DNA of 59,585 bases from a virus (IMGVR_UViG_3300011409_000288:1-59585), one strand, 5' to 3'; positions 9,597-50,455 are shown, numbered from the stretch's first letter. Numbers and translations: made by a program. Notes: generated by a model not told the origin, from the sequence alone.

Positions 9597-10067
9597 GAGG
9601 TAAATGTATGGCGTCCCCAGGGTGTGGCGTCTTAGCTGTCCCTATAGCGCCGCAAGCGTGTGGCAAACCGCCGCGCTAGGTTGGCCGGAAGCCAGTCAAT
9701 AATGAGCCGAGGGTTGTTGAGATCTCGGCTCGCTCGCCATTGTTCCATAAACCACATGGAGTTATCCTTTCTCCCGCGTGACGCTGGTAGTGTGCGATTG
9801 ATCTTGTGCATCAAGCAGTCCTGAAACCAGGCGCGATACTCATTTCCGGTATAGGTTCGTGGCCAGCCTCCGGTATCCACAGCCTTGATTGTTCCTGTGG
9901 GGGTGTTCCTTGGCAAAGGCGAGTGCTGCGCGTAACTGTGGCACGGTGTACTGTGTCATGCTATGTTCTTTCTGATAGGAGGTATTCTTTGTGTGCCTTG
10001 TGCTGGCTTGTCACAGCACTGCCACATTACGGCCCGGGCAGATCGCCCGGGCTGACTCTGTATAAGG

Positions 10068-10589
10068 CTAGATACGACACCCCATAATCACACCGATGGC
10101 CCCGTTCCCGTCTGTCCCCTTTACACGCATAGTGTAGTTCTCTGGATTAAGGCTCAGAACAATGACGGTATTGTCTGAAAGTGTTTTGGCTAGGTCGAGC
10201 ATGAGCTGTGCGTTGAAGGACACCGTGACGGGCAAACTGTCTTTCTCTGGTATAACCGCCTCATACTGCGGATATTTTGGTGGAGGATCTTCCCCTTGGA
10301 ACGGGTTCGGAAACGACACCAGCCCTGTCTTCCCCATAACCTGCGTTGTCTCCTTGTAGTGGAGTAACTTGCCCCGGAAACCTTTCGGGAGCTTGGCTGC
10401 TGCTAGGATAGCCTCCGCAGGCACATAGCCGGAGACTTCTCCCTCATCGGGATCAATAGGGTATTCCACAAGTGCCGCTCCATCGGTAGCCACTGCTACC
10501 CTCTTCTCGACATTCACATAGACATGTTGAATACTGGCCTGAGACCTTTCATTACCACAAAGTGCTAAGAGAGATTTTGGGATGTTCAT
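10068..10589 (-). CDS. Truncated beta-sliding-clamp-like protein
   Basis: VAVATDGAAL, KYPQYEAVIP, VSFNAQLM, GVIMGCR resemble domains II-III of DnaN. Confidence 0.6.
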   Translation of the reverse strand: MNIPKSLLALCGNERSQASIQHVYVNVEKRVAVATDGAALVEYPIDPDEGEVSGYVPAEAILAAAKLPKGFRGKLLHYKETTQVMGKTGLVSFPNPFQGEDPPPKYPQYEAVIPEKDSLPVTVSFNAQLMLDLAKTLSDNTVIVLSLNPENYTMRVKGTDGNGAIGVIMGCRI

Positions 10590-10636
10590 TGCTCGCTCCT
10601 TTATAGGGCGTCCTGCGACGCCCTGGTGTGTGCTAG

Positions 10637-10843
10637 TTAGGCTCCGCGCTCTGTCTCCGTATTTTCAACCGCACTGATCTGCTCGTCTGTCGGGGCTGTG
10701 AGTACCCTTACGACAACCTCCTCCTCGTAGGCATACTGGAGAAGCTCTCCAATAATCGCTTCATGGATATTCTCTTCCGTGACGCGAAACCCGTCAGCAA
10801 TCCAGTTATCTGCTATCGCAATTTCAACCGTCCACTTCAACAT
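10637..10843 (-). CDS. Small hypothetical protein
   Basis: AGGAGG RBS. Confidence 0.65.
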   Translation of the reverse strand: MLKWTVEIAIADNWIADGFRVTEENIHEAIIGELLQYAYEEEVVVRVLTAPTDEQISAVENTETERGA

Positions 10844-11039
10844 ATGTACCTCCTATATGGTGTTAGGCCGCTGGCGACCCCGTGGTGTGGCGACTTGAGG
10901 CAGGCTATGAGGCAAGGGGAAGCGTCAGGGAATGCACCAGCCGCGCCTGTTCCCCTACAGCGCGACAATCGGCTACAAAGCGTTGTTGCCAATAGAAGTT
11001 GAGCAAGGTTGCGTCAGCCATGTCTGTCACTACTGTTGA

Positions 11040-11125
11040 GTGCCTATGCCAGCATGGCAGACGGTCTGCCATGCTCGTGTTCTGTCACGCAGGGCAACTT
11101 TCTGCTGCGCTCGCACACTGAGCAC
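11040..11125 (-). ncRNA. Structured intergenic repeat, copy A (four-way junction motif)
   Basis: AGTGTGCGAG-hairpin-CGTG acagaa CACG-hairpin-GGCATAGG on the minus strand. Confidence 0.65.
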
Positions 11126-11126
11126 C

Positions 11127-11426
11127 CTAGACCAATGCCAATTGGCCGATGACCTGCTCCACCAGCCAGGCCCGTGCCTCCTTGACACTGGCGCAATCCT
11201 TGTTACGATAGTTACTGTGTATTGCATAGTCCACATGGCCCGAGCTGTCATACGCCATAGCGAGCACAAACGCCGGCCTGTGCGGAAGATCTTGATAGCT
11301 GAGATAATAACCCCGCGCCCGTTCTGCGCCGTCTGCATCCTCGACATAGAGCCAGCCCCGATCTGAGGTTGCCCATTGACCGCTGTCCTGTGGGGCCGTT
11401 GCTGTATAGGTATCAAACGTATACAT
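11127..11426 (-). CDS. Hypothetical protein
   Basis: RBS; stop immediately precedes repeat copy A. Confidence 0.6.
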   Translation of the reverse strand: MYTFDTYTATAPQDSGQWATSDRGWLYVEDADGAERARGYYLSYQDLPHRPAFVLAMAYDSSGHVDYAIHSNYRNKDCASVKEARAWLVEQVIGQLALV

Positions 11427-11449
11427 GGTATGGACCTTTCTGTATGGTG

Positions 11450-11680
11450 CTAGTTTTTGTATGCGTCAGCTATCAGATCATAGGTCAGAAAAATGGCTTT
11501 CGCCTTTTCCTCATTGTTCGTGTTGAGACATGCGACCAGTTCTTGCGCCAGTGCTGGGACACAGTACGGTTTTGCTTTCTTGGTACTACTACGAAGCGGT
11601 TTTGGGTTCGCTCGCTTGTATGCCGCTAAACACATGGCGTAAATCAATTCATGGGCTTTGTTGTGCCAGGTATGCTCCAT
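11450..11680 (-). CDS. Hypothetical protein
   Basis: AGGAG RBS just after repeat copy B. Confidence 0.65.
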   Translation of the reverse strand: MEHTWHNKAHELIYAMCLAAYKRANPKPLRSSTKKAKPYCVPALAQELVACLNTNNEEKAKAIFLTYDLIADAYKN

Positions 11681-11700
11681 AACAATGCTCCTGTGTTGCC

Positions 11701-11779
11701 CCTATGCCGAACCGTCTGCACCATGCATACAATCCCCTGTTGTCTCAGGTAGGGCAGCAGAGCGCTGCCCTCGCACACT
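11701..11779 (-). ncRNA. Structured intergenic repeat, copy B
   Basis: Same architecture; central hairpin CCTG agacaa CAGG. Confidence 0.65.
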
Positions 11780-12000
11780 TAGGGTTGACCTTTCAGAAAC
11801 GCTTCCCCATGGAGAATGCACTGTGCTACACAATGCTCGTTGTGGAAATAGGAAGAGGCAAAATCACTCTTGCGCAGGGTACCATCTCCATTGGCTAGCT
11901 CTAGCACAATGTACCGCTCCGCGCAGGAGCCTGGTGTTCCACAACCCGAGCACTTATACATACCTGCCATATCTGCCACCGTCTTATCATAGATCCGCAT
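11779..12000 (-). CDS. Small Cys-containing hypothetical protein
   Basis: RBS; CxxC; stop overlaps repeat copy B. Confidence 0.6.
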   Translation of the reverse strand: MRIYDKTVADMAGMYKCSGCGTPGSCAERYIVLELANGDGTLRKSDFASSYFHNEHCVAQCILHGEAFLKGQP

Positions 12001-12015
12001 TGTCTTCCCTTTCTG

Positions 12016-12300
12016 TTAGTGGCCTGGTCGATCTGGATAATTCTGCTGTATCCCGTCCGCCTCTGCGACAAGCGATTGCCGCACCGCCGCGAGATGTACC
12101 ATCCGCTCATGAAACTGTGTCAGTGCCTGCGGAAAAAGCCCATCGACCAGATAATAATTCCGTCCGTTTGGCGCACACGCCGCCAGTGCTACCTCCGCCG
12201 CCTTGACCGCTTGATAGGCTGACTCTAAATTGTGCAAGAGCGTTTTCTTTGTGTCCCCGTTCATGTGGACAATGGGAAGGATAACCGTAGGCTTTTCCAT
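12016..12300 (-). CDS. Hypothetical phage protein
   Basis: LPIVHMNGD...APNGRNYY; GAGG RBS. Confidence 0.65.
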   Translation of the reverse strand: MEKPTVILPIVHMNGDTKKTLLHNLESAYQAVKAAEVALAACAPNGRNYYLVDGLFPQALTQFHERMVHLAAVRQSLVAEADGIQQNYPDRPGH

Positions 12301-12316
12301 GATTGCATCCTCTGAT

Positions 12317-12559
12317 TTACGTGTGATCGCACCCATATACCCATGTACTAGGCAATTCTATGTGGCATGCTTGGGTATGCACTGGTCGCACCGCTACAAC
12401 CTTTACGAGCGACTTATATTGCCGCTGGACACACCACCAAGTACGCAGCGCACCCCAACACGACCGCGCCTGGACGGTCGCACTCCACCGGCCCGAGAGC
12501 GCATGCTGTGACCTGTTCCAAACCTGGTAGTCAATCCGAAACTGATGCAACGATGCCAT
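12317..12559 (-). CDS. Small hypothetical protein
   Basis: AGGAGG RBS. Confidence 0.55.
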   Translation of the reverse strand: MASLHQFRIDYQVWNRSQHALSGRWSATVQARSCWGALRTWWCVQRQYKSLVKVVAVRPVHTQACHIELPSTWVYGCDHT

Positions 12560-12567
12560 GGTGCCTC

Positions 12568-12714
12568 CTAATCGAGAAGGAAGTAATAGTTGCGTGCGGC
12601 ATACAATGCAAATTCATACGCCTGTACGTCATAGAGCCGCATGGTATCAAAGCCTCTATAGTCAATATAGGCGTCAAGGATACTCTGTAAACACCTATGC
12701 TCTATCAGAGTCAT
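12568..12714 (-). CDS. 48-aa hypothetical protein (below ORF-track cutoff)
   Basis: MTLIEHRCLQSILDAYIDYRGF...; fills the gap between neighbouring genes. Confidence 0.45.
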   Translation of the reverse strand: MTLIEHRCLQSILDAYIDYRGFDTMRLYDVQAYEFALYAARNYYFLLD

Positions 12715-13034
12715 TATTAGATTTCCTTCTTATAGGCATAATCTGCCATGACAGTGAGTCCATGGAGAATAAACAACCGTGCCTCTGTTTGTTCGGGGGT
12801 TTCATCCCAATGGACAGCGGCATATTGTTCCCGTAGATCTGCTGCAAGCCGCTTCAGAATCACGTCAAGACCTGTGTCAATGATGTTAGGAAGGAGCATG
12901 GATGGACCTTTCATGAGGACAGCGTACCGCCCTCGCACAAGTACGCTTGTAAGTCCTGGTGGACTCTAGGTTATGGTGGTTAGGGTAGAGAGGGAGGTAT
13001 GGAGCGACTCTCAATACGCCGCTCCGCATGTCAC

Positions 13035-13253
13035 CTAGACGCTTACATGGCCGGCCATGATGTTATGGACCTTAAACACTGCGCTTGCCTTGCCTGTCGC
13101 ATCCTGCCGGATGTGCAAATATTCTGTGCCTTGCATCTCTACCACCAGACCGCGCTTGTCTGCCAATGCCGCATAGGCCTGCACATGGCATGGGCCAACG
13201 TAATACTTGACCAGGTATCCCTTGTCATTATGTGCTATGACTCTGGTATGCAT
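13035..13253 (-). CDS. Small hypothetical protein
   Basis: AAGGA RBS after repeat copy C. Confidence 0.55.
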   Translation of the reverse strand: MHTRVIAHNDKGYLVKYYVGPCHVQAYAALADKRGLVVEMQGTEYLHIRQDATGKASAVFKVHNIMAGHVSV

Positions 13254-13279
13254 CTAGCTTCCTTTCTTGGCGTAATGCG

Positions 13280-13360
13280 CCTATGCCGAACGATGCACCC
13301 TATGTACACCGCCCCGTGTTCTGTCACGTAGGGAAGGCTACTCGCCTTCCCTCGCACACT
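13280..13360 (-). ncRNA. Structured intergenic repeat, copy C
   Basis: Same architecture; begins at the DUF932 stop codon. Confidence 0.65.
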
Positions 13361-14934
13361 TAGCGCCTATTTGCCTGGATACTGTCCCATTGTGCTTGAT
13401 CGACTGCTAGGCATCCGTCAGGATACGCCGCTTGATATGCGGCTATCTGTGCCTGGACGTCGCCTACTGGTATGGTGACTTGCCGCACGACCACTACGTC
13501 AGAGATGGACTCCACAATGCACGCCTTGACCTTGGATGGTAGGTCATACTTGTCTACTGCCGTGGTATAGACCGCTGCGTGATCCGCTGGTATGCTGTCC
13601 TCGTCAACGACTGCCACTGGCGCGATGTTCGGCTGGACGTTCACCACTTCCTGGACTGCTACAGATGGCATGCTGTCCATATTATTGTCATACTTTAATA
13701 CCTCGAAATCGACAATGTCATACACCTCTTCACTGTCCTCCGATTGCGTTGGCTCCGCTGGTATGCTCGGCTGTGTTGGGATGGTGATAATAGTCTGTTG
13801 CACGCTTGCCTGCTGCTCAGCCATCGGCACCGCGCTCTCGGTGGAGCCCACCACAATTTCAGCCCATGGCTGGTATGTGGGTGTGATGTTCCTTGGAGCC
13901 ATACTCACAATGGGCGCATCCTCGCAACATTCCGACCCGTCCGCCATGACCAGAATTTTTTGGAGGGCCTTTTCCTTTAACTTCGCACCATCGCCGACCT
14001 GTGCCCGCTCAAAACGGATTTGATCATCCGTCATATTGCTTGTTTTATTTGTTTGCTTTACAAGTTGGGCATGGTCAACATAGTTTGTGACCGCTTGATA
14101 CAGCCCATAGGCCGTTTTTTTCCACTCAGGCCACCTATTGCCGTCGTTATCGTCGACCAATTCCATTACCTTGCTTTTAATGTTGTTGGTACGCCCTGTG
14201 TCTTGCTCGCCAAAGAGCGCATTAAGGATACTGATATACCCTTGCGGCTTGAGCCGGCGTTGTGCGAGCTTTTCGAGCGATGCTTTCAGATTCGCTACCG
14301 TGGCCTGTTGCTGGGCCATAAGCCGTGCGGCGTCTTTGGTATCAGAGGCAATGCGCGCCTTGATGTTTTTGGTATGCCGATAGTCCATGCTAAAATCGGC
14401 TGAGGACAGCCCCTGTCTTGTCGTATTCATACAGACCGCACGCACGCTGGACATGTACACCGTCGCCTTAAACCGGCCATTGTAGCTGTTGAGGAAACTG
14501 ATATAGGTTTTCGTAATATCGCCACTGCCTAGCACGTCAATTGCGCCAGTTCGTGCACTGAGGTTCAGGACTGCGCCACCCTGCATGGCAATGGCGGCAG
14601 CAATCGGGATCTCAGGATACGTCTGGAAAAAGGCCGCGCAGAAATCAAAGAGATCCCTCGGCTGGATGTTCCCATAATTGCCACTGTGGACCCCTAACTC
14701 TGCGCCTGTATCAGAGCGGCGTATCCCATGCTGCGCTGAGAGAGAGCCATCCGCATATTGGAGTTGCTCCTGAACCGCTCGCCATGGCCAGGCTATGGAG
14801 AAAATATCATCAAAACTCACAGGCCCTTGTAACACCTGCGCCGGCATACTGTCACTGTGCCACCAGGGAAATTCGCCATACCCAAATACCGCTTCTGCTT
14901 GTCCCATGCTGTCGAAAGCAATTTCGTGTGCCAT
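13360..14934 (-). CDS. DUF932-family phage/plasmid protein with acidic C-terminal extension
   Basis: MAHEI start, RRSDTGAELG, LNSYNG, VRAVCMNT, YRHT, TAYGLYQAVTNYVDH. Confidence 0.85.
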   Translation of the reverse strand: MAHEIAFDSMGQAEAVFGYGEFPWWHSDSMPAQVLQGPVSFDDIFSIAWPWRAVQEQLQYADGSLSAQHGIRRSDTGAELGVHSGNYGNIQPRDLFDFCAAFFQTYPEIPIAAAIAMQGGAVLNLSARTGAIDVLGSGDITKTYISFLNSYNGRFKATVYMSSVRAVCMNTTRQGLSSADFSMDYRHTKNIKARIASDTKDAARLMAQQQATVANLKASLEKLAQRRLKPQGYISILNALFGEQDTGRTNNIKSKVMELVDDNDGNRWPEWKKTAYGLYQAVTNYVDHAQLVKQTNKTSNMTDDQIRFERAQVGDGAKLKEKALQKILVMADGSECCEDAPIVSMAPRNITPTYQPWAEIVVGSTESAVPMAEQQASVQQTIITIPTQPSIPAEPTQSEDSEEVYDIVDFEVLKYDNNMDSMPSVAVQEVVNVQPNIAPVAVVDEDSIPADHAAVYTTAVDKYDLPSKVKACIVESISDVVVVRQVTIPVGDVQAQIAAYQAAYPDGCLAVDQAQWDSIQANRR

Positions 14935-14962
14935 TGTGGTATCCCATTATGCCTATGCTGCG

Positions 14963-15042
14963 CCTATGCCGAACCGTGCCCACCATGGACACAATCCCCT
15001 GTTATGTCAGGCAGGAGGCTACTCGTAGCCTCCTCGCACACT
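14963..15042 (-). ncRNA. Structured intergenic repeat, copy D
   Basis: Same architecture; central hairpin CCTG acataa CAGG. Confidence 0.65.
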
Positions 15043-15048
15043 GAGCGC

Positions 15049-15273
15049 TTATTTCCGCATACCCTGTGGATAGGTCGCTGGATTGAACCGCGCCTTACCA
15101 TCCTTCGCCATAGTGTAAATATTGACGACTACTCTGATAGGCCGTAGCTCGACCCCACAATGGAGCCGCTGTCGATTGACACGCCGATAGGCTCTATGCC
15201 AGCGTTGCTTATCGTGTTTCTCTGACCCGCGACAATGCCCGATCACCGGCACATGTTTGCTTGACCTGCTCAT
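15049..15273 (-). CDS. Small basic hypothetical protein
   Basis: MSRSSK...SEKHDKQRWHR...MAKDGK...MRK; overlapping stop/start with upstream gene. Confidence 0.7.
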   Translation of the reverse strand: MSRSSKHVPVIGHCRGSEKHDKQRWHRAYRRVNRQRLHCGVELRPIRVVVNIYTMAKDGKARFNPATYPQGMRK

Positions 15274-15599
15274 ACTGCCTCCCCTGTGACTTGATCAAGG
15301 ATGGTCTGGTACTTCCCTTTGCACGTTGGGCAGACCTTGTAACACCGATCACCATGGTACCCGTTGGCATGCCTCTTTGGTGCTTTACACCTTTTCACTT
15401 TGCCCGACTCGCACGCCTCACACACCTTGACACACTCAACTCTCGTGACTGTGTGTTGTGCACTGTAGAATGCCACTGCTTTACAGACGTCATGCTGGAG
15501 TTTCAAGAACGTCGCTGCGCCGAGACCGACCGCGCTGTCATACACCTGCCCTGCCGGTCGATACGCGACCCAGGCCCCATAGAGATATCTGTCGCTCAT
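15270..15599 (-). CDS. Zn-finger (CxxCxxxG) hypothetical protein
   Basis: CEACESG, CPTCKGK. Confidence 0.55.
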   Translation of the reverse strand: MSDRYLYGAWVAYRPAGQVYDSAVGLGAATFLKLQHDVCKAVAFYSAQHTVTRVECVKVCEACESGKVKRCKAPKRHANGYHGDRCYKVCPTCKGKYQTILDQVTGEAV

Positions 15600-16023
15600 G
15601 CTTGTTTCCCTTCTTCTGTCGCATGTATGCGTGCCCGTACTCTTGCGGCCCATTCGTCCTGCGACACTACGCGGATACCGTCTCGCTCGGCTTGCTGTCT
15701 GTAGGCTGCTGCGGTACGTTCGATAAAAGACACTTTCTGCTGGAGCATTTTGTCTGTCATTTTTCGTTTTCGTGCCATGGTCCTGTTTCCTTCCCTGTGA
15801 GAGTAGGCTTGCTTGCCATGTAGCCTTGCCACATTAGGAGGATAGGTGTCTATCCTCCGACTCTGTTGCACTCTCATGATCTATGCTGTACTCAGCTTGA
15901 TTTCTCCCTCCCGCCAGGCCTTACACCCTGTACTGATCGCCTGTGGTACTCAGAAACCTCTTTGGGCTTTTCCTATCCTTTGTCTCTAACCGCCGTCTGG
16001 CTGACCGCCAGTAGATGAACATA

Positions 16024-28833: not shown

Positions 28834-31800
28834 ATGTGGATTCGAGACTATGCCCGCGAGCCGGTGCGGGTGGGGGAACTGGTCTTCTGGGACACGATGC
28901 CGACTTCGACGATCATCCATCAGAAAGATAATAGCCTGATGGCCTGTCTCCGCATACGCGGGCAGGATCTCTACAGCAGCCTGGATAGTGCGCTGGTCCT
29001 TCAGGCACGAAAGCTCAACGCCGTGTTTCGCCGTCTCACCGGAGGTTGGGGCGTGATGACCGATGCCAGGCGGCACATGGTCCAGACGTACCCGGATCTC
29101 ACCTGGCCCGACCCAGTGAGTCGGCTGGTGGATCAGGAACGGCGTACCTTCTTTCTTGCCCCTGGCAATCTCTACGACACAGACACCGTACTTAGTCTGG
29201 TCTACCGTGGCCCCCGGACACAGCAGGCCAGGTGGAAAACCCTGATGTATACCAATCTCCCCGAGGAGGATCAGGCAGAGGGACAGTATCGGTATTTTGA
29301 GGAGGAAGTGGCGCGGCTCGCTGGGCTCCTGCAGGACTGTTGTGCGAACGTGACGCGCCTCAGTGATACCGATCTCCTGACGTACCTCCATAATACCGTC
29401 AGCCCGACCCCGCACCAGGTGGCCGTGCCTGATCCTGCCGCCTATTTGGACACCTATCTGACCTATGAGGCGGATCTCAGGCGTACATGGGTACCAGGGA
29501 GCGTCATACGGTGGCCAAGGATAGGAGACCAATGGGTGCGGTGTGTTGGGGTAAAGGCATATCCCTCTGCAACCCAACCGGGCATGTTAGAGAGCCTGGC
29601 GCAGCTCCCTATGGAGTATCGGGCAACCACGCGGTATGTGCCACTCGACCGCACCAAGGCAACCAGCGAGTTGCGCAGGTATCGCAAGGCACACTACGGT
29701 CAACGTAAAAGTGTCACAGCGGTCCTCAAGGAACGCACCACGGGCGAAGAAAGTCCACTCATGGAGCAGGCCGCGCTGGATTGGGAGCAGGAAGCGAGCG
29801 AGGCACAGGCCGAGGTCCAACATGGCACCGTCAGTTATGGGTATCTGACGCAAACGGTTGTGGTGTGGGGAGAGACGTTCCAGGAGGCGACCGAGAAGGC
29901 AACCCTGGTCGAAACCACCCTCAACAATGCCGAGTTTGTTGCCAAGGTCGAAGGATTGAACACGATGGATGCCTGGGTGGGCAGTCTCCCAGGCAATATG
30001 GTCGCCAATGTGCGGAAACCCTTGCTCCATTCCCAGAACGTTAGCCATTTGATTCCAGCGACCTGCCCCACGGCAGGGGTTCCCTGGAATACGCATCTCA
30101 ATGGCCCCCCCTTGTTACGCACGGTAGGTCGCGGGCAGACCCCCTTCAATCTCGACACCTACGATGGGGATGTCGGGATGGCATATATCGCGGGTCCGGT
30201 GGGGTGCCATGCCACGGGAACAGCAATTCTTATGGCAGATGGGGAAAAGAAGGCCGTCGAAGATATTCAGGTTGGGGAGTGTGTGATGGGTCCAGATGCG
30301 CGGCCACGGTTAGTAGAGTCACTCCATCGTGGCCGCGCAATGATGGTAGAAATCCGTCCAACAAAAGGCGCTCCCTTTATTGTCAACCTTGACCATGTAC
30401 TGTCATTGCGTCGTACCAATGATGGTTCACGATTCGACGGAACGATCATGAATATCTCAGTACGGGAGTGGCTCCAGCGGAGTGAGACCTTCAAGGGGCT
30501 TCATAAACTGTACAGAACAGGAGTGGATTTTCCCCACGGCGCAGCACTGCCGCTTCCCCCATATCTGCTTGGGGTACTTTTAGGCGATGGCGATCTTCAG
30601 AGTACGCCAGTCATTGCTAACCCAGATCCTGAGATTTATGAAGCCGTCGTCTCGTATGCGGCAGTGTGTGGATATAGGGTAGGAGAGGTATATAGCAATA
30701 GTAGTGGATGTCCGCACTATCGGATCACCCATCCCATGGGAATCCGACGCCCCAAGATGAGTCGTAATCCTGTCACAGTCATACTTGAACAGCTCCAGTT
30801 GCGCGGGTGTATCAGCGCAACAAAATTTATCCCGCAGCAGTACAAAACGGGATCACGGGCCGACAGGCTCAACCTCCTAGCGGGGCTTCTCGACACGGAC
30901 GGATCATTGTCACGAAACAGTTACGACTATATAAGCCAGTCGTTAAGACTTGCGGAAGATGTCTGTTTTGTTGCGCGAAGCCTTGGGCTCGCCGCGTACC
31001 TCACACCATGTGAGAAATACTGCCAAACAGGAGGTGGTGGAACCTACTACCGCGTCAGTATCTCTGGGAATGCAGAAATCATTCCCTGTCGTGTTAAACG
31101 GAAACAGGCGGCGCCGAGGCGACAGAAGAAGTCTGTTCTCATGACAGGCTTTACCGTCCATCCCGTTGGTATGGGAGAGTATTATGGTTTTACCTGTGAG
31201 AGCGACCATTTGTATCTACTAGGAGATTTTACGGTCACACATAATAGTGGCAAGAGCACCGCACTTGCCACCATGGCGATGGCCTGGCTGCAATACCCAG
31301 GCGCGGAGGTGAAGATTTTCGATACGGGGCAGTCGTTACGGTGTACGACCTATGCAGTGGGTGGGCACTGGTATGACATCAGCGCCGAACTCGAACGCAC
31401 CATGGGCCTGGGAGGGAAACTGGACGATGCGGATACGAAGCTCTGGGGAACCCCCTGGACGCCACCCAAGGAACGGTGGCAGTGCTTTGAAATGGAGGAC
31501 CTGCTCAAGACCCCAGAGGTGATGGCGGACGTGATTCGTCCGTTGCTCCATACACTCACAGAGCGCCTGACCGGCGCTCCGGCCCTGTTTGTCTTTGATG
31601 AGGGGCATCTCTACCTGTTGCACAAGGTCTTTGAGCGGGGGATTGATGACTACATCCGTGGAATCCGCAAGAAGAATGGGGCAGTACTCTTTGCGACCCA
31701 GAGCATTGCGGATGTCGCACGGAGTGACCTGGCAGCAATTATGAGCGACTCCTGCATGACGCGCATTCTGTTGCCGAATTTTCATGCCCTGGAGCCCCAG

Positions 31801-32082
31801 ACCGCTGCGATCTACGACGGGTGGGGGGTGAATGCCAGGGAACGTGACATTATTGCGCATCTCACCCCGAAGCGGGATTACTACGTCCAGAGCCGGCAGG
31901 GGTGCCGTGCCTTTGAATTACACCTTGGGCCAGTCGCCCTGGCGTTTGCGGGCGCGAGTCAAAAGCCTGATCTCGCTTTGATGGACACCCTGTATACAGG
32001 GAATGGTGTGCAGTTTGCCCGCGAGTGGCTGCATGCCAAAGGACTCCACACCTATGCGGATACCTTAAAGGAGGACGTATGA
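28834..32082 (+). CDS. virB4: VirB4/TrbE ATPase containing an intein
   Basis: QKDNSLMACLRIRGQD, WPDPVSRLVDQERR, GSLPGNMVANVRKP, split Walker A GPVG|SGKST, FDEGH, RKKNGAVLFATQS. Confidence 0.93.
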   Translation: MWIRDYAREPVRVGELVFWDTMPTSTIIHQKDNSLMACLRIRGQDLYSSLDSALVLQARKLNAVFRRLTGGWGVMTDARRHMVQTYPDLTWPDPVSRLVDQERRTFFLAPGNLYDTDTVLSLVYRGPRTQQARWKTLMYTNLPEEDQAEGQYRYFEEEVARLAGLLQDCCANVTRLSDTDLLTYLHNTVSPTPHQVAVPDPAAYLDTYLTYEADLRRTWVPGSVIRWPRIGDQWVRCVGVKAYPSATQPGMLESLAQLPMEYRATTRYVPLDRTKATSELRRYRKAHYGQRKSVTAVLKERTTGEESPLMEQAALDWEQEASEAQAEVQHGTVSYGYLTQTVVVWGETFQEATEKATLVETTLNNAEFVAKVEGLNTMDAWVGSLPGNMVANVRKPLLHSQNVSHLIPATCPTAGVPWNTHLNGPPLLRTVGRGQTPFNLDTYDGDVGMAYIAGPVGCHATGTAILMADGEKKAVEDIQVGECVMGPDARPRLVESLHRGRAMMVEIRPTKGAPFIVNLDHVLSLRRTNDGSRFDGTIMNISVREWLQRSETFKGLHKLYRTGVDFPHGAALPLPPYLLGVLLGDGDLQSTPVIANPDPEIYEAVVSYAAVCGYRVGEVYSNSSGCPHYRITHPMGIRRPKMSRNPVTVILEQLQLRGCISATKFIPQQYKTGSRADRLNLLAGLLDTDGSLSRNSYDYISQSLRLAEDVCFVARSLGLAAYLTPCEKYCQTGGGGTYYRVSISGNAEIIPCRVKRKQAAPRRQKKSVLMTGFTVHPVGMGEYYGFTCESDHLYLLGDFTVTHNSGKSTALATMAMAWLQYPGAEVKIFDTGQSLRCTTYAVGGHWYDISAELERTMGLGGKLDDADTKLWGTPWTPPKERWQCFEMEDLLKTPEVMADVIRPLLHTLTERLTGAPALFVFDEGHLYLLHKVFERGIDDYIRGIRKKNGAVLFATQSIADVARSDLAAIMSDSCMTRILLPNFHALEPQTAAIYDGWGVNARERDIIAHLTPKRDYYVQSRQGCRAFELHLGPVALAFAGASQKPDLALMDTLYTGNGVQFAREWLHAKGLHTYADTLKEDV
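30205..31245 (+). mobile_element. Intein (347 aa) with LAGLIDADG homing endonuclease
   Basis: Starts CHATGTAILMADG, block B VNLDHVLSL, LLGVLLGDG and LLAGLLDTDG, ends VTHN followed by Ser. Confidence 0.95.
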
Positions 32083-49626: not shown

Positions 49627-50455
49627 GTGGCAGCCAGCTCGTTCATTTTTGACCATGCCAAAGCGGGATGGGGCATGTTATCCGCTCCCAGTTTGTGCTA
49701 TTGGTCATCGACCACAGCCTCATTTTACATCACATTGGTCAATGAATAAGGCCACCCTTGTTCGTAAGGACAAGGCGCAACCGGGAGAATTGCTGGAACC
49801 CCCTAAAGCCATCGGCACTACAGCATAGCTCGTAAGGGCAGGTGCGAATGTGAGAAAAGACGATGGATGACGGCAAAGCCGGAAATGGGCAATCAGCAGC
49901 CGAGCGTCCTGGAAACAGGATGAAGGTTCAACGACTAACGCAGACAGCCCTAACGTAAAGACGAGGGCGATGAAGCGACACGAGCACCCGGCCCCCTTTT
50001 TGGGGAGATGAGATAGTCTGGGCTATGACCGAAAGGCATAGAAATGCAGGATAAAGAGCCTGCATTCACACACACGCTCAAATAACTATGTGCCCGATGA
50101 GGCCCATCGCTACATGTCGGCTTTGTCTGGGGCAGAGTTGTCCAGCACTTCCTTTACCGCAGGCTCAGGCGGCACGATGCGGATTTCCCTGACAGGCCGC
50201 ATTCTGAATGTGAACACCACCTCGCATCAGGCAGAGTTTCAGGCGAACACGATCACCTGGTCGGGACTCAGTGCAGGCACCGCCCATGCGTTTGTGGTGT
50301 TCCAGTATGCGACGAGTGGGGCTACTCAGGCTAGTGATGCTACGGCTATTCTAGTTTGTTATAACAGTTTAGGAGGATTTCCCATCACGACCAACGGAAC
50401 TAACCTTACGCTATCGGTTACTTCCGCTGGCCTGTTTGCTGGTGTTGACTTTTAG
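49627..50455 (+). CDS. Putative virion-associated protein split by a group I intron (exons 49627-49739 and 50077-50455; 163 aa)
   Basis: TAAGGAG RBS plus GTG; splicing restores ...FYITLV|SNNYVPDEAHRY... in frame. Confidence 0.82.
49740..50076 (+). ncRNA. Group I self-splicing intron (337 nt, no ORF)
   Basis: P1 TGGTC/GGCCA with U.G at 49739/49751; P AATTGCTGGAA, Q AATCAGCAG, R TTCAACGACTA, S GAGATAGTC; P3 CCGGG/CCCGG; terminal G. Confidence 0.92.

Follow-up and report, generated by a model that had tools for sequence, protein, structure and literature searches.

The window analysed here, IMGVR_UViG_3300011409_000288:1-59585, is an IMG/VR virus record of 59,585 base pairs (bp), rated complete by CheckV, whose origin is an uncultured sediment phage. 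Among a block of small minus-strand genes it holds four copies of a compact four-way-junction module, and this module, set at the ends of individual genes, is the subject of the present analysis. A sigma-70-like promoter predicted by consensus match on the minus strand at 16052-16024 (TTGACA, 17 nucleotides (nt), TATTAT; 11 of 12 consensus positions) probably heads the leftward operon that contains all four copies, and the designation of the block as early genes in a first-pass annotation of the sequence, which is inferred from this same site, is plausible. With 17 distinct copies now recognized on 9 viral or metagenome contigs, the identification of the module as an uncatalogued structured RNA family that resides in small-gene operons of unrelated uncultured phages is strongly supported.

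Architecture of the module and its copies in the window

The module is 71-87 nt long by model and reaches ~90 nt when an outer helix, P0, of 2-6 covarying base pairs is included. An asymmetric internal loop, 5'-YNAG facing one G, separates P0 from P1, a 5-bp helix of invariant sequence (UGUGC/GCAUA) in which every one of the 17 copies keeps a G-U pair, and P1 opens into a nearly perfect four-way junction whose linkers are G, R, none and G. The first hairpin, H1, is variable in sequence and length above two invariant basal pairs, A-U and G-C; the central hairpin, H2, is always 4 bp and carries an A-rich six-base loop that reads ANANAA in 16 of 17 copies; and the third, H3, is again variable in sequence and length, spanning 5-12 bp with just 5 bp in three copies. 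The resulting arms measure 5, 6-11, 4 and 5-12 bp. The remaining invariant positions are the AG of the internal loop (with the G present in 16 of 17), the linker G, the R linker and the G that precedes the 3' strand of P1.

Copy 4 (14960-15048, minus strand) scores 96.3 bits with R1, the covariance model built from the four window copies, and 73.5 bits with R2, a second and later model, and its own fold has an energy of -39.4 kcal/mol (z -3.4). Its P0 (GCGC/GCGC) pairs 15048-15045 with 14963-14960 and its P1 pairs 15040-15036 with 14969-14965, with UCAG (15044-15041) facing G14964 in the internal loop and with H1, H2 (CCUG-ACAUAA-CAGG) and H3 inside; the stop codon (15051-15049) of an open reading frame (ORF) of 74 amino acids (aa) abuts P0. 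Copy 3 (13277-13366, minus; R1 92 bits, R2 71.7 bits; own fold -41.0 kcal/mol, z -5.0) again has a GCGC/GCGC P0, together with a P1 formed by 13358-13354 and 13286-13282, the H2 sequence CGUG-ACAGAA-CACG, and a UAAG internal loop that includes the UAA stop (13362-13360) of the gene for a DUF932 protein. The UAAG internal loop of copy 2 (11699-11784, minus; R1 97 bits, R2 75.2 bits; own fold -34.7 kcal/mol, z -2.4) similarly takes in the UAA stop (11781-11779) of a 73-aa ORF, between a CCC/GGG P0 and a P1 of 11777-11773 with 11707-11703, and its H2 is CCUG-AGACAA-CAGG. Copy 1 (11040-11125, minus; R1 79.5 bits, R2 71.3 bits; own fold -33.4 kcal/mol, z -1.9) combines a GUGC/GCAC P0, a UCAG internal loop, a P1 of 11117-11113 with 11049-11045 and the H2 sequence CGUG-ACAGAA-CACG, and the UAG stop (11129-11127) of a 99-aa ORF lies just 5' of its P0.

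With R1 run over all 59,585 bases and filters off, the best score outside the copies was 12.7 bits, compared with 79.5-97 bits for the copies themselves, and a combined sequence pattern (GTGCGAG..TGACA..GGCATAGG) matched three times in the window and not once in 100 shuffles. These scores, the pattern scan and the single-copy folds confirm the four minus-strand locations given by the first-pass annotation. The layout that it described is likewise borne out, from the outer stem TGTGC/GCATA, the GAG, the variable hairpin and the long second variable hairpin to the central hairpin, CCTG/CAGG or CGTG/CACG around a loop of A(C/G)A(G/C/T)AA, and the covarying outer flanks GTGC/GCAC, CCC/GGG and GCGC/GCGC. 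Pairwise identity among the four copies is 52-69%, which indicates that their shared fold is not simply the product of recent duplication.

Two further minus-strand stretches resemble parts of the module. At 12916-12940, just before the start of the next gene, UGUGC-G and an AG...CU hairpin may represent the 5' half of a truncated fifth copy or may equally have arisen by chance; this stretch is without H2, H3 and the 3' strand of P1, carries an exact TGTGCGAG at 12932-12939, and is scored by neither R1 nor R2. Outside the copies, 8-mers of the TGTGCGAG type occur three times versus 2.7 expected, which is within chance. At 14945-14970, GCAUAGGC is found twice, 4 nt apart, and is followed by AUAAUGG; the 3' end of the motif is thereby partly repeated after copy 4, in what could be a recombination scar.

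Covariation and predicted fold

Of the 426 cells in the alignment of all 17 copies (A5), 98.8% are standard pairs, with double changes at 17 of the 26 pairs. Across 500 shuffles the observed covariation score, share of paired cells and counts of pair types and of double-change cells were never attained, and a single one of the 500 reached the observed number of pairs with double changes; when the pairing partners were slid by 1-3 columns, the pairing dropped to only 27-48% of cells. The covariation that had first been read from four sequences therefore grew stronger in the larger alignment. Folded individually, 16 of the 17 copies have a minimum-energy structure that reproduces the three-hairpin junction (at least 80% of consensus pairs), with energies of -30 to -42 kcal/mol across the copies. 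For P0, the copies' own partner strands form a mean of 3.27 contiguous pairs (~3.5 on hand correction of the 3' anchor of one row) versus 1.27 for 210 cross pairs between copies, and 0 of 10,000 permutations reached the observed mean.

Inspection by eye for tertiary pairing indicated that neither the internal loop nor the junction R covaries with the variable positions of the H2 loop, and that the H1 and H3 loops are not complementary. A coding explanation of the conservation was rejected, as the copy lengths of 71-87 nt differ by non-multiples of three and the changes are compensatory.

Distribution beyond the window

Exact-pattern scans located one copy each in the viral contigs G001 (109 kb) and G002 (36 kb), of which G001 is labelled a provirus and is phage-like throughout. 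A metagenome scan added copies on L040, L043, L046, L047 and L050, with real copies in 7 of the 13 stretches recovered (L051 is identical to L050). A further carrier, G003, is a complete phage of 70.5 kb that has terminal repeats, and in it two copies stand directly before a DUF932 gene. At 38% identity, the product of this gene is the closest relative of the window's DUF932 protein among 31 loci that a search of viral contigs with an alignment (A4) of 13 DUF932 relatives yielded; a single-protein DUF932 scan found nothing. The G003 copies had been missed by the exact patterns because of a GG junction linker, and in a scan with a GG-linker pattern only G003 was real, the other two stretches giving no match.

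Separation between the family and its background is wide, as true copies score 53-77.5 bits with R2 and everything else scores at most 23 bits. Pattern scans of viral contigs returned only L005 and L007 as real, the 22 other stretches of one such scan scoring no higher than 19.9 bits with R1 and 23 bits with R2, and a relaxed pattern that gave at least 115 stretches produced no R2 match in 78 new loci among the matches listed. Across genomes of 185,579 species, one genome each, there were eight pattern matches, none of them real and none above 15 bits, and a blastn 'distant' comparison of positions 10000-16000 with 50,697 phage records gave no match.

Placement between genes and strand of folding

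The position of the module relative to its neighbours is nearly uniform. The stop codon of the upstream ORF falls in the 5' strand of P0 or in the internal loop in 14 of the 17 copies and is ambiguous in the other three (L007, L046 and the contig-end copy of L047), and a Shine-Dalgarno (SD)-like sequence with a start codon follows 9-43 nt downstream. Within the window a stop precedes every copy, 0-8 nt ahead of the G before UGUGC, and an SD-like sequence follows three of the four, in keeping with the stops and ribosome-binding sites that the first-pass annotation had reported. A ribosome terminating at the upstream stop would, we infer, have to open P0 and P1. The module occupies 4 of roughly 12 junctions in the window, and its four copies are overlapped by none of 15 promoter-like sites and by none of the minus-strand terminator-like sites. 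Four DNA contig sets were compared, and none shows an indel or join at the copies; two of the runs may be where this DNA originated. In the same samples, short contigs from other organisms end in the 5' start of the motif beside a diverged homologue of the gene at 11779-12000, which is a hint only.

The paired columns contain 47 G-U cells and no A-C cell, from which it follows that the gene-sense strand is the folded strand, and the G.U bias toward the transcribed strand that had been noted from four copies thus holds throughout. The sense strand was the more stable in all 15 copies then known, by a mean of 9.3 kcal/mol, and all 17 copies are in sense with the ORFs that flank them. Strand bias and orientation would fit an RNA made within the mRNA, and would also fit single-stranded DNA of the same strand. 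The latter option matters because the window encodes conjugation genes, namely a coupling protein and VirB4, the VirB4-type ATPase being encoded at 28834-32082 on the plus strand with a Hint and LAGLIDADG insertion (intein). The coupling-protein family is present in one of four carrier genomes (G000-G003) and the complete genome G003 is without it, indicating that the motif does not travel with conjugation. An antisense terminator, composed of the complement of H3 and the U-rich complement of H2 and flagged as terminator-like at copy 1, was rejected because none of the 47 G-U pairs survives in the antisense fold. Of the cis-acting RNA proposed at first pass, these observations support one part well, namely that within a single operon the gene-sense strand folds in a strand-specific manner.

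Gene content around the module

Modules are INDEPENDENCE from gene content: the proteins flanking them are unrelated between loci, save for one small gene family. When window ORFs of at least 50 aa were compared by tblastn with G001, G002 and L040, HNH nucleases were common, and the only other matches were a 268-aa ORF in G001 only and a 340-aa ORF in L040 only. Since the carriers share only HNH nucleases and isolated ORFs, a phage-encoded partner is unlikely, and the conserved core must be read by a factor common to the hosts or act by itself. In G000, G001 and G002 there was no PF00078 reverse transcriptase and no PF01797 Y1 transposase; PF00589 tyrosine recombinases were absent from the complete window genome and from G002, and the one found in G001 lies 15 kb from the copy. 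None of five gene types tracks the motif, the reverse transcriptase, Y1 transposase and tyrosine recombinase having been followed through G000-G002 and DUF932 and the coupling protein through G000-G003.

One pair of loci records a change of gene content at the module. L050 has the order module-S-C, with a spacing of 4 nt between genes S and C, and the related L043 has the order module-X-S-module-Y-module-C, which places gene Y between two modules exactly at the S/C junction (L043 656-1684 versus L050 2175-2581). This single case would fit a module that serves as a boundary at which recombination chances to succeed. The three L043 copies have almost identical H1 hairpins, and the window copies form a mosaic in which H3 is similar in copies 2 and 4 and H2 is common to copies 1 and 3, a pattern in sequence that suggests exchange between copies. 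The cassette-shuffling role offered by the first-pass annotation gains from the L043/L050 comparison and loses on two other counts, as no recombinase was found and the strand bias argues for RNA over a DNA site.

The neighbourhoods of DUF932 genes hold other structured RNAs as well. In an Rfam scan of the 31 DUF932 loci, two proved to have a gene-strand type II hammerhead a short distance ahead of an SD sequence and start codon, and type II hammerheads, tRNA genes or Proteo-phage-1 RNA near DUF932 were placed at L189 681-756 (plus), L196 2503-2571 (plus), L187/L188 5244-5546 (plus) and L186 2938-3016 (minus). In L187 and L188, whose matches are identical and which may be one sequence, tRNA genes come just after the DUF932 gene. 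As positional evidence, these hammerheads and tRNA genes are weak but consistent.

Comparison with catalogued RNA families

A scan of the whole window with the 4227 models of Rfam 15 at gathering score returned only a group I intron at 49716-50041 (plus strand, 56.9 bits). At E<=10, positions 10800-15300 gave two chance matches to snoRNA/snRNA models outside the copies, and a 116-nt stretch around copy 4 gave none. L175, which has two copies, gave no Rfam match, and the other carrier loci matched only a group I intron. No known family having matched, the module stands as the first-pass annotation left it, unrecognized. A description of the motif is absent from the literature searched; it may be listed in the catalogue of 8,495 structured-RNA candidates from IMG/VR (PMC10690425).

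A second group I intron lies in the carrier genome G002 (L058 13029-13346, minus, 68.2 bits), and the window and G002, both with such an intron, are also both rich in HNH nuclease genes.

The surrounding operon

Between copies 4 and 3 lies the DUF932 gene (13360-14934, minus; 524 aa; Pfam PF06067, E 5.7e-27), whose product is the only Pfam or PHROG match among ten ORFs scanned in the block. The 74-aa ORF that ends immediately before copy 4 (15049-15273, minus) encodes a very basic protein with an arginine-rich stretch, and it has no Pfam match, no PHROG match and no relative in the other carriers. Small minus-strand ORFs without assigned function occupy 10905-13253, between and around copies 3, 2 and 1, at 13035-13253, 12717-12938, 12568-12714, 12317-12559, 12016-12300, 11779-12000, 11450-11680, 11127-11426 and 10905-11021; in a scan of the eight other than 12568-12714 there was no Pfam or PHROG match. 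The 97-nt gap after a 72-aa ORF (12940-13035, minus) contains a separate strong hairpin, GGAGCG...CGCUCC, which has no U-tract and is unrelated to the motif.

Discussion

The fold of the module is new unless it is contained in the supplements of the IMG/VR catalogue (PMC10690425), and its general arrangement within operons is already known. Its closest counterparts in behaviour are the clustered hammerheads of prophages (mostly type II, RF02276), which also occur in multiple sense-strand copies in an operon just before an SD sequence and start and which flank single genes or short blocks of changing identity (Perreault et al. 2011, PMC3088659). The same authors propose processing of the long transcript and describe ~2-kb polycistronic RNA fragments that were cleaved in vitro, including a triple arrangement around ardA (PMC3088659). 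The two elements differ in architecture: the hammerhead is a three-way junction with a CUGANGA/GAAA core and a UH cleavage site, and its self-cleavage leaves a 2',3'-cyclic phosphate and a 5'-OH, whereas the module is four-way and has almost no unpaired junction bases. Having four arms joined by the linkers G, R, none and G and no hammerhead match in the window, it was not assigned to the hammerhead clan (CL00010).

We propose that the module serves as a processing and end-protecting RNA punctuation mark of polycistronic mRNA, a reading to which we assign about an even chance. In its favour are the covarying fold, its strand, its placement between cistrons, its independence of the flanking genes, and a genomic syntax of stop, module, SD and start that matches the clustered prophage hammerheads. 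Modules would be transcribed within the polycistronic mRNA of small early or accessory genes, where they would punctuate between cistrons, and the long message would then be cut at the module, with either the RNA itself as the catalyst or a host RNase or protein recognizing the invariant core of P1, junction and H2. The compact fold would stay at the end of the mRNA, so that this end is protected and neighbouring cistrons are uncoupled, a mode of action also proposed for the clustered prophage hammerheads and for the RNase III sites of T7 early mRNA, and as a by-product the conserved ends of the module would come to mark the boundaries of gene gain or swap.

Several considerations weigh against this proposal. 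The cutting step is read from sequence and predicted fold, and the pair counts of alignments A3 and A5 are inflated because both were fitted to the model, the single-sequence folds being independent of this fitting. The family is small, at 17 copies, and is seen only in metagenomes. A classic RNase III site would call for longer and less variable arms, and the arm lengths misfit a tRNA-like substrate of RNase P. The invariant sequence of P1 is left unexplained by a simple stabilizing role, and the parallel with hammerheads, which stands on 2 of 31 loci, is weak.

A particular form of the proposal is that the module constitutes a new class of small self-cleaving ribozyme, a candidate that we regard as possible though doubtful. 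In this form P1 with its G-U pair, the YNAG/G loop, the junction purines and the A-rich H2 loop would make up the active site, and the early mRNA would be cut right after the stop, so that the next cistron would carry the folded module at its 5' end in the manner of a cap. To our knowledge only about ten classes of small self-cleaving ribozyme exist, and several ribozyme classes were found through neighbourhoods shared with hammerheads in phage operons. Hammerhead-like syntax, a compact invariant core and strong covariation together make the module a cheap and well-defined candidate for the bench. Among known ribozymes, twister-sister is a four-way junction in which the closing arm contains an internal loop and the arm facing it ends in a conserved loop. 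The module is alike in its closing arm of P0, loop and P1, in the opposed H2 with its conserved loop, and in its two variable arms, and differs in a much smaller internal loop (4 nt facing 1 nt) and in showing no similarity of sequence or model; twister-sister (RF02681) was not among the matches at E<=10, and membership was rejected. The hairpin ribozyme (RF00173), which has two conserved internal loops, A and B, in neighbouring arms of its junction, was set aside as well, as the module has a single internal loop, that between P0 and P1, its H1 and H3 are plain variable hairpins, and Rfam gave no match.

Other phage systems share parts of this arrangement. The early-gene RNase III sites of T7 and of the Bacillus phages SP82 and SPO1 are repeated between cistrons and are thought to protect mRNA ends after cutting, and the likeness to the module lies in repeated structured sites after a stop and before the next SD sequence in an early operon. 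Those sites, in contrast, are single long irregular hairpins, and a four-way junction with variable arms of 4-12 bp would be a poor substrate; an RNase III site of the T7/SP82 type was rejected on the grounds that the module is not a single extended, irregular hairpin spanning two helical turns or so and that H3 has 5 bp in three copies. The PeSL elements of T4-type phages combine a sigma-70 promoter with a terminator stem-loop and act on DNA and transcription (Arbiol et al. 2010, PMC2839356). Like the module, they are short conserved intergenic elements among small non-essential genes at junctions of gain, loss or replacement, of which one is documented here; the module differs in having no promoter-like or sense-strand terminator-like site and in a fold that is under strand-specific selection. 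A PeSL cassette was accordingly ruled out for the window copies, none of which is overlapped by any of the 15 promoter-like sites or by a minus-strand terminator-like site. The arrays of noncoding RNA associated with UG27 reverse transcriptases have units of ~150 nt, AUC...UANAG and UUYA motifs, and an adjacent reverse transcriptase with two accessory genes (bioRxiv 10.64898/2026.09.22.753630), and they were rejected on unit length, on conserved motifs and on the absence of PF00078 from G000-G002.

Transfer RNAs and tRNA-like structures, whose cloverleaf has a 7-bp acceptor stem, a 5-bp T arm capped by a 7-nt loop and an anticodon loop of 7 nt, were dismissed in view of the arm lengths, the 6-nt H2 loop, an ARAGORN count of zero genes in the window and the lack of an Rfam tRNA match. 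The attC site of integrons is a structured, strand-specific repeat that follows the stops of small co-oriented genes and has conserved ends around a variable middle. The module differs from it in folding on the sense strand, in occupying 4 of ~12 junctions and in having ends unlike attC core sites, and attC was rejected on the absence of an integrase, such as the IntI-type tyrosine recombinase of integrons (no PF00589), from the complete window genome. A palindrome derived from REP/RAYT or IS200/IS605 elements was also discarded, as G000-G002 have no Y1 transposase and the window copies, at 52-69% identity, are far from the near-identical copies of such elements; a host-encoded enzyme is possible in that case.

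If the module is never cut, its stable fold beside the stop might act as a passive insulator or stabilizer that stops 3' exonucleases or run-on by ribosomes and uncouples cistrons, as the REP elements of Escherichia coli operons do. We consider this unlikely: the position directly after stops, the folds of -30 to -42 kcal/mol and the want of a shared partner protein would all suit such a role, yet it would have no need for ~30 bases that never change, for a constant G-U pair or for set lengths of P1 and H2 across unrelated phages. Either a host factor or a small, basic protein of the phage might instead bind the module on the nascent RNA, as a nut/boxB-like antitermination site or a translational operator. 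H2, with its short G-C stem and purine-rich loop, may resemble a lambdoid boxB, and the 74-aa ORF with its arginine-rich stretch ends right before the first copy of the operon; neither this ORF nor any other non-HNH protein is common to all carriers, however, four copies per operon would be unusual for nut, and no boxA or boxA-like single-stranded element was identified in the module. We regard protein binding of this kind as unlikely.

A DNA-level role is a still poorer prospect in our judgement, whether as a recombination or cassette-junction site or as a single-stranded priming or entry signal on the strand transferred by conjugation. What speaks for it is that the window has a coupling protein and VirB4, that G-T pairs serve single-stranded DNA as G-U pairs serve RNA, that an L043 gene lies between two copies where its L050 neighbours abut, and that copies within a genome have parts in common in mosaic fashion. 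Set against this are the occurrence of the coupling protein in one of four carriers, with complete G003 lacking it, the absence of a tyrosine recombinase from the window and of a Y1 transposase from G000-G002, and the 52-69% identity of the window copies with compensatory changes, which is unlike recent mobile copies; nor are there direct target duplications at the copies, because their flanks are complementary and not repeated. It is very unlikely, finally, that excised modules accumulate as a trans-acting small RNA that binds or decoys a host defence or RNA-processing factor. A compact, stable and conserved core, several copies per genome and independence of neighbouring gene identity would be in keeping with that activity, but the variable arms have no conserved loops for target pairing and the tight placement from stop to SD suggests a role in cis.

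In summary, the biological meaning of the module depends on what reads it. Should it prove self-cleaving, nature would in effect have its own version of the ribozyme insulators that synthetic biology employs. If a host RNase or RNA-binding protein reads it, it would be a portable adaptor common to very different phages, one that would allow newly acquired genes to be expressed from an existing operon and that would mark the sites of gene swaps. Either way, the module would add a new fold to the means by which phages punctuate their early messages, and would offer synthetic biology a natural intercistronic insulator.

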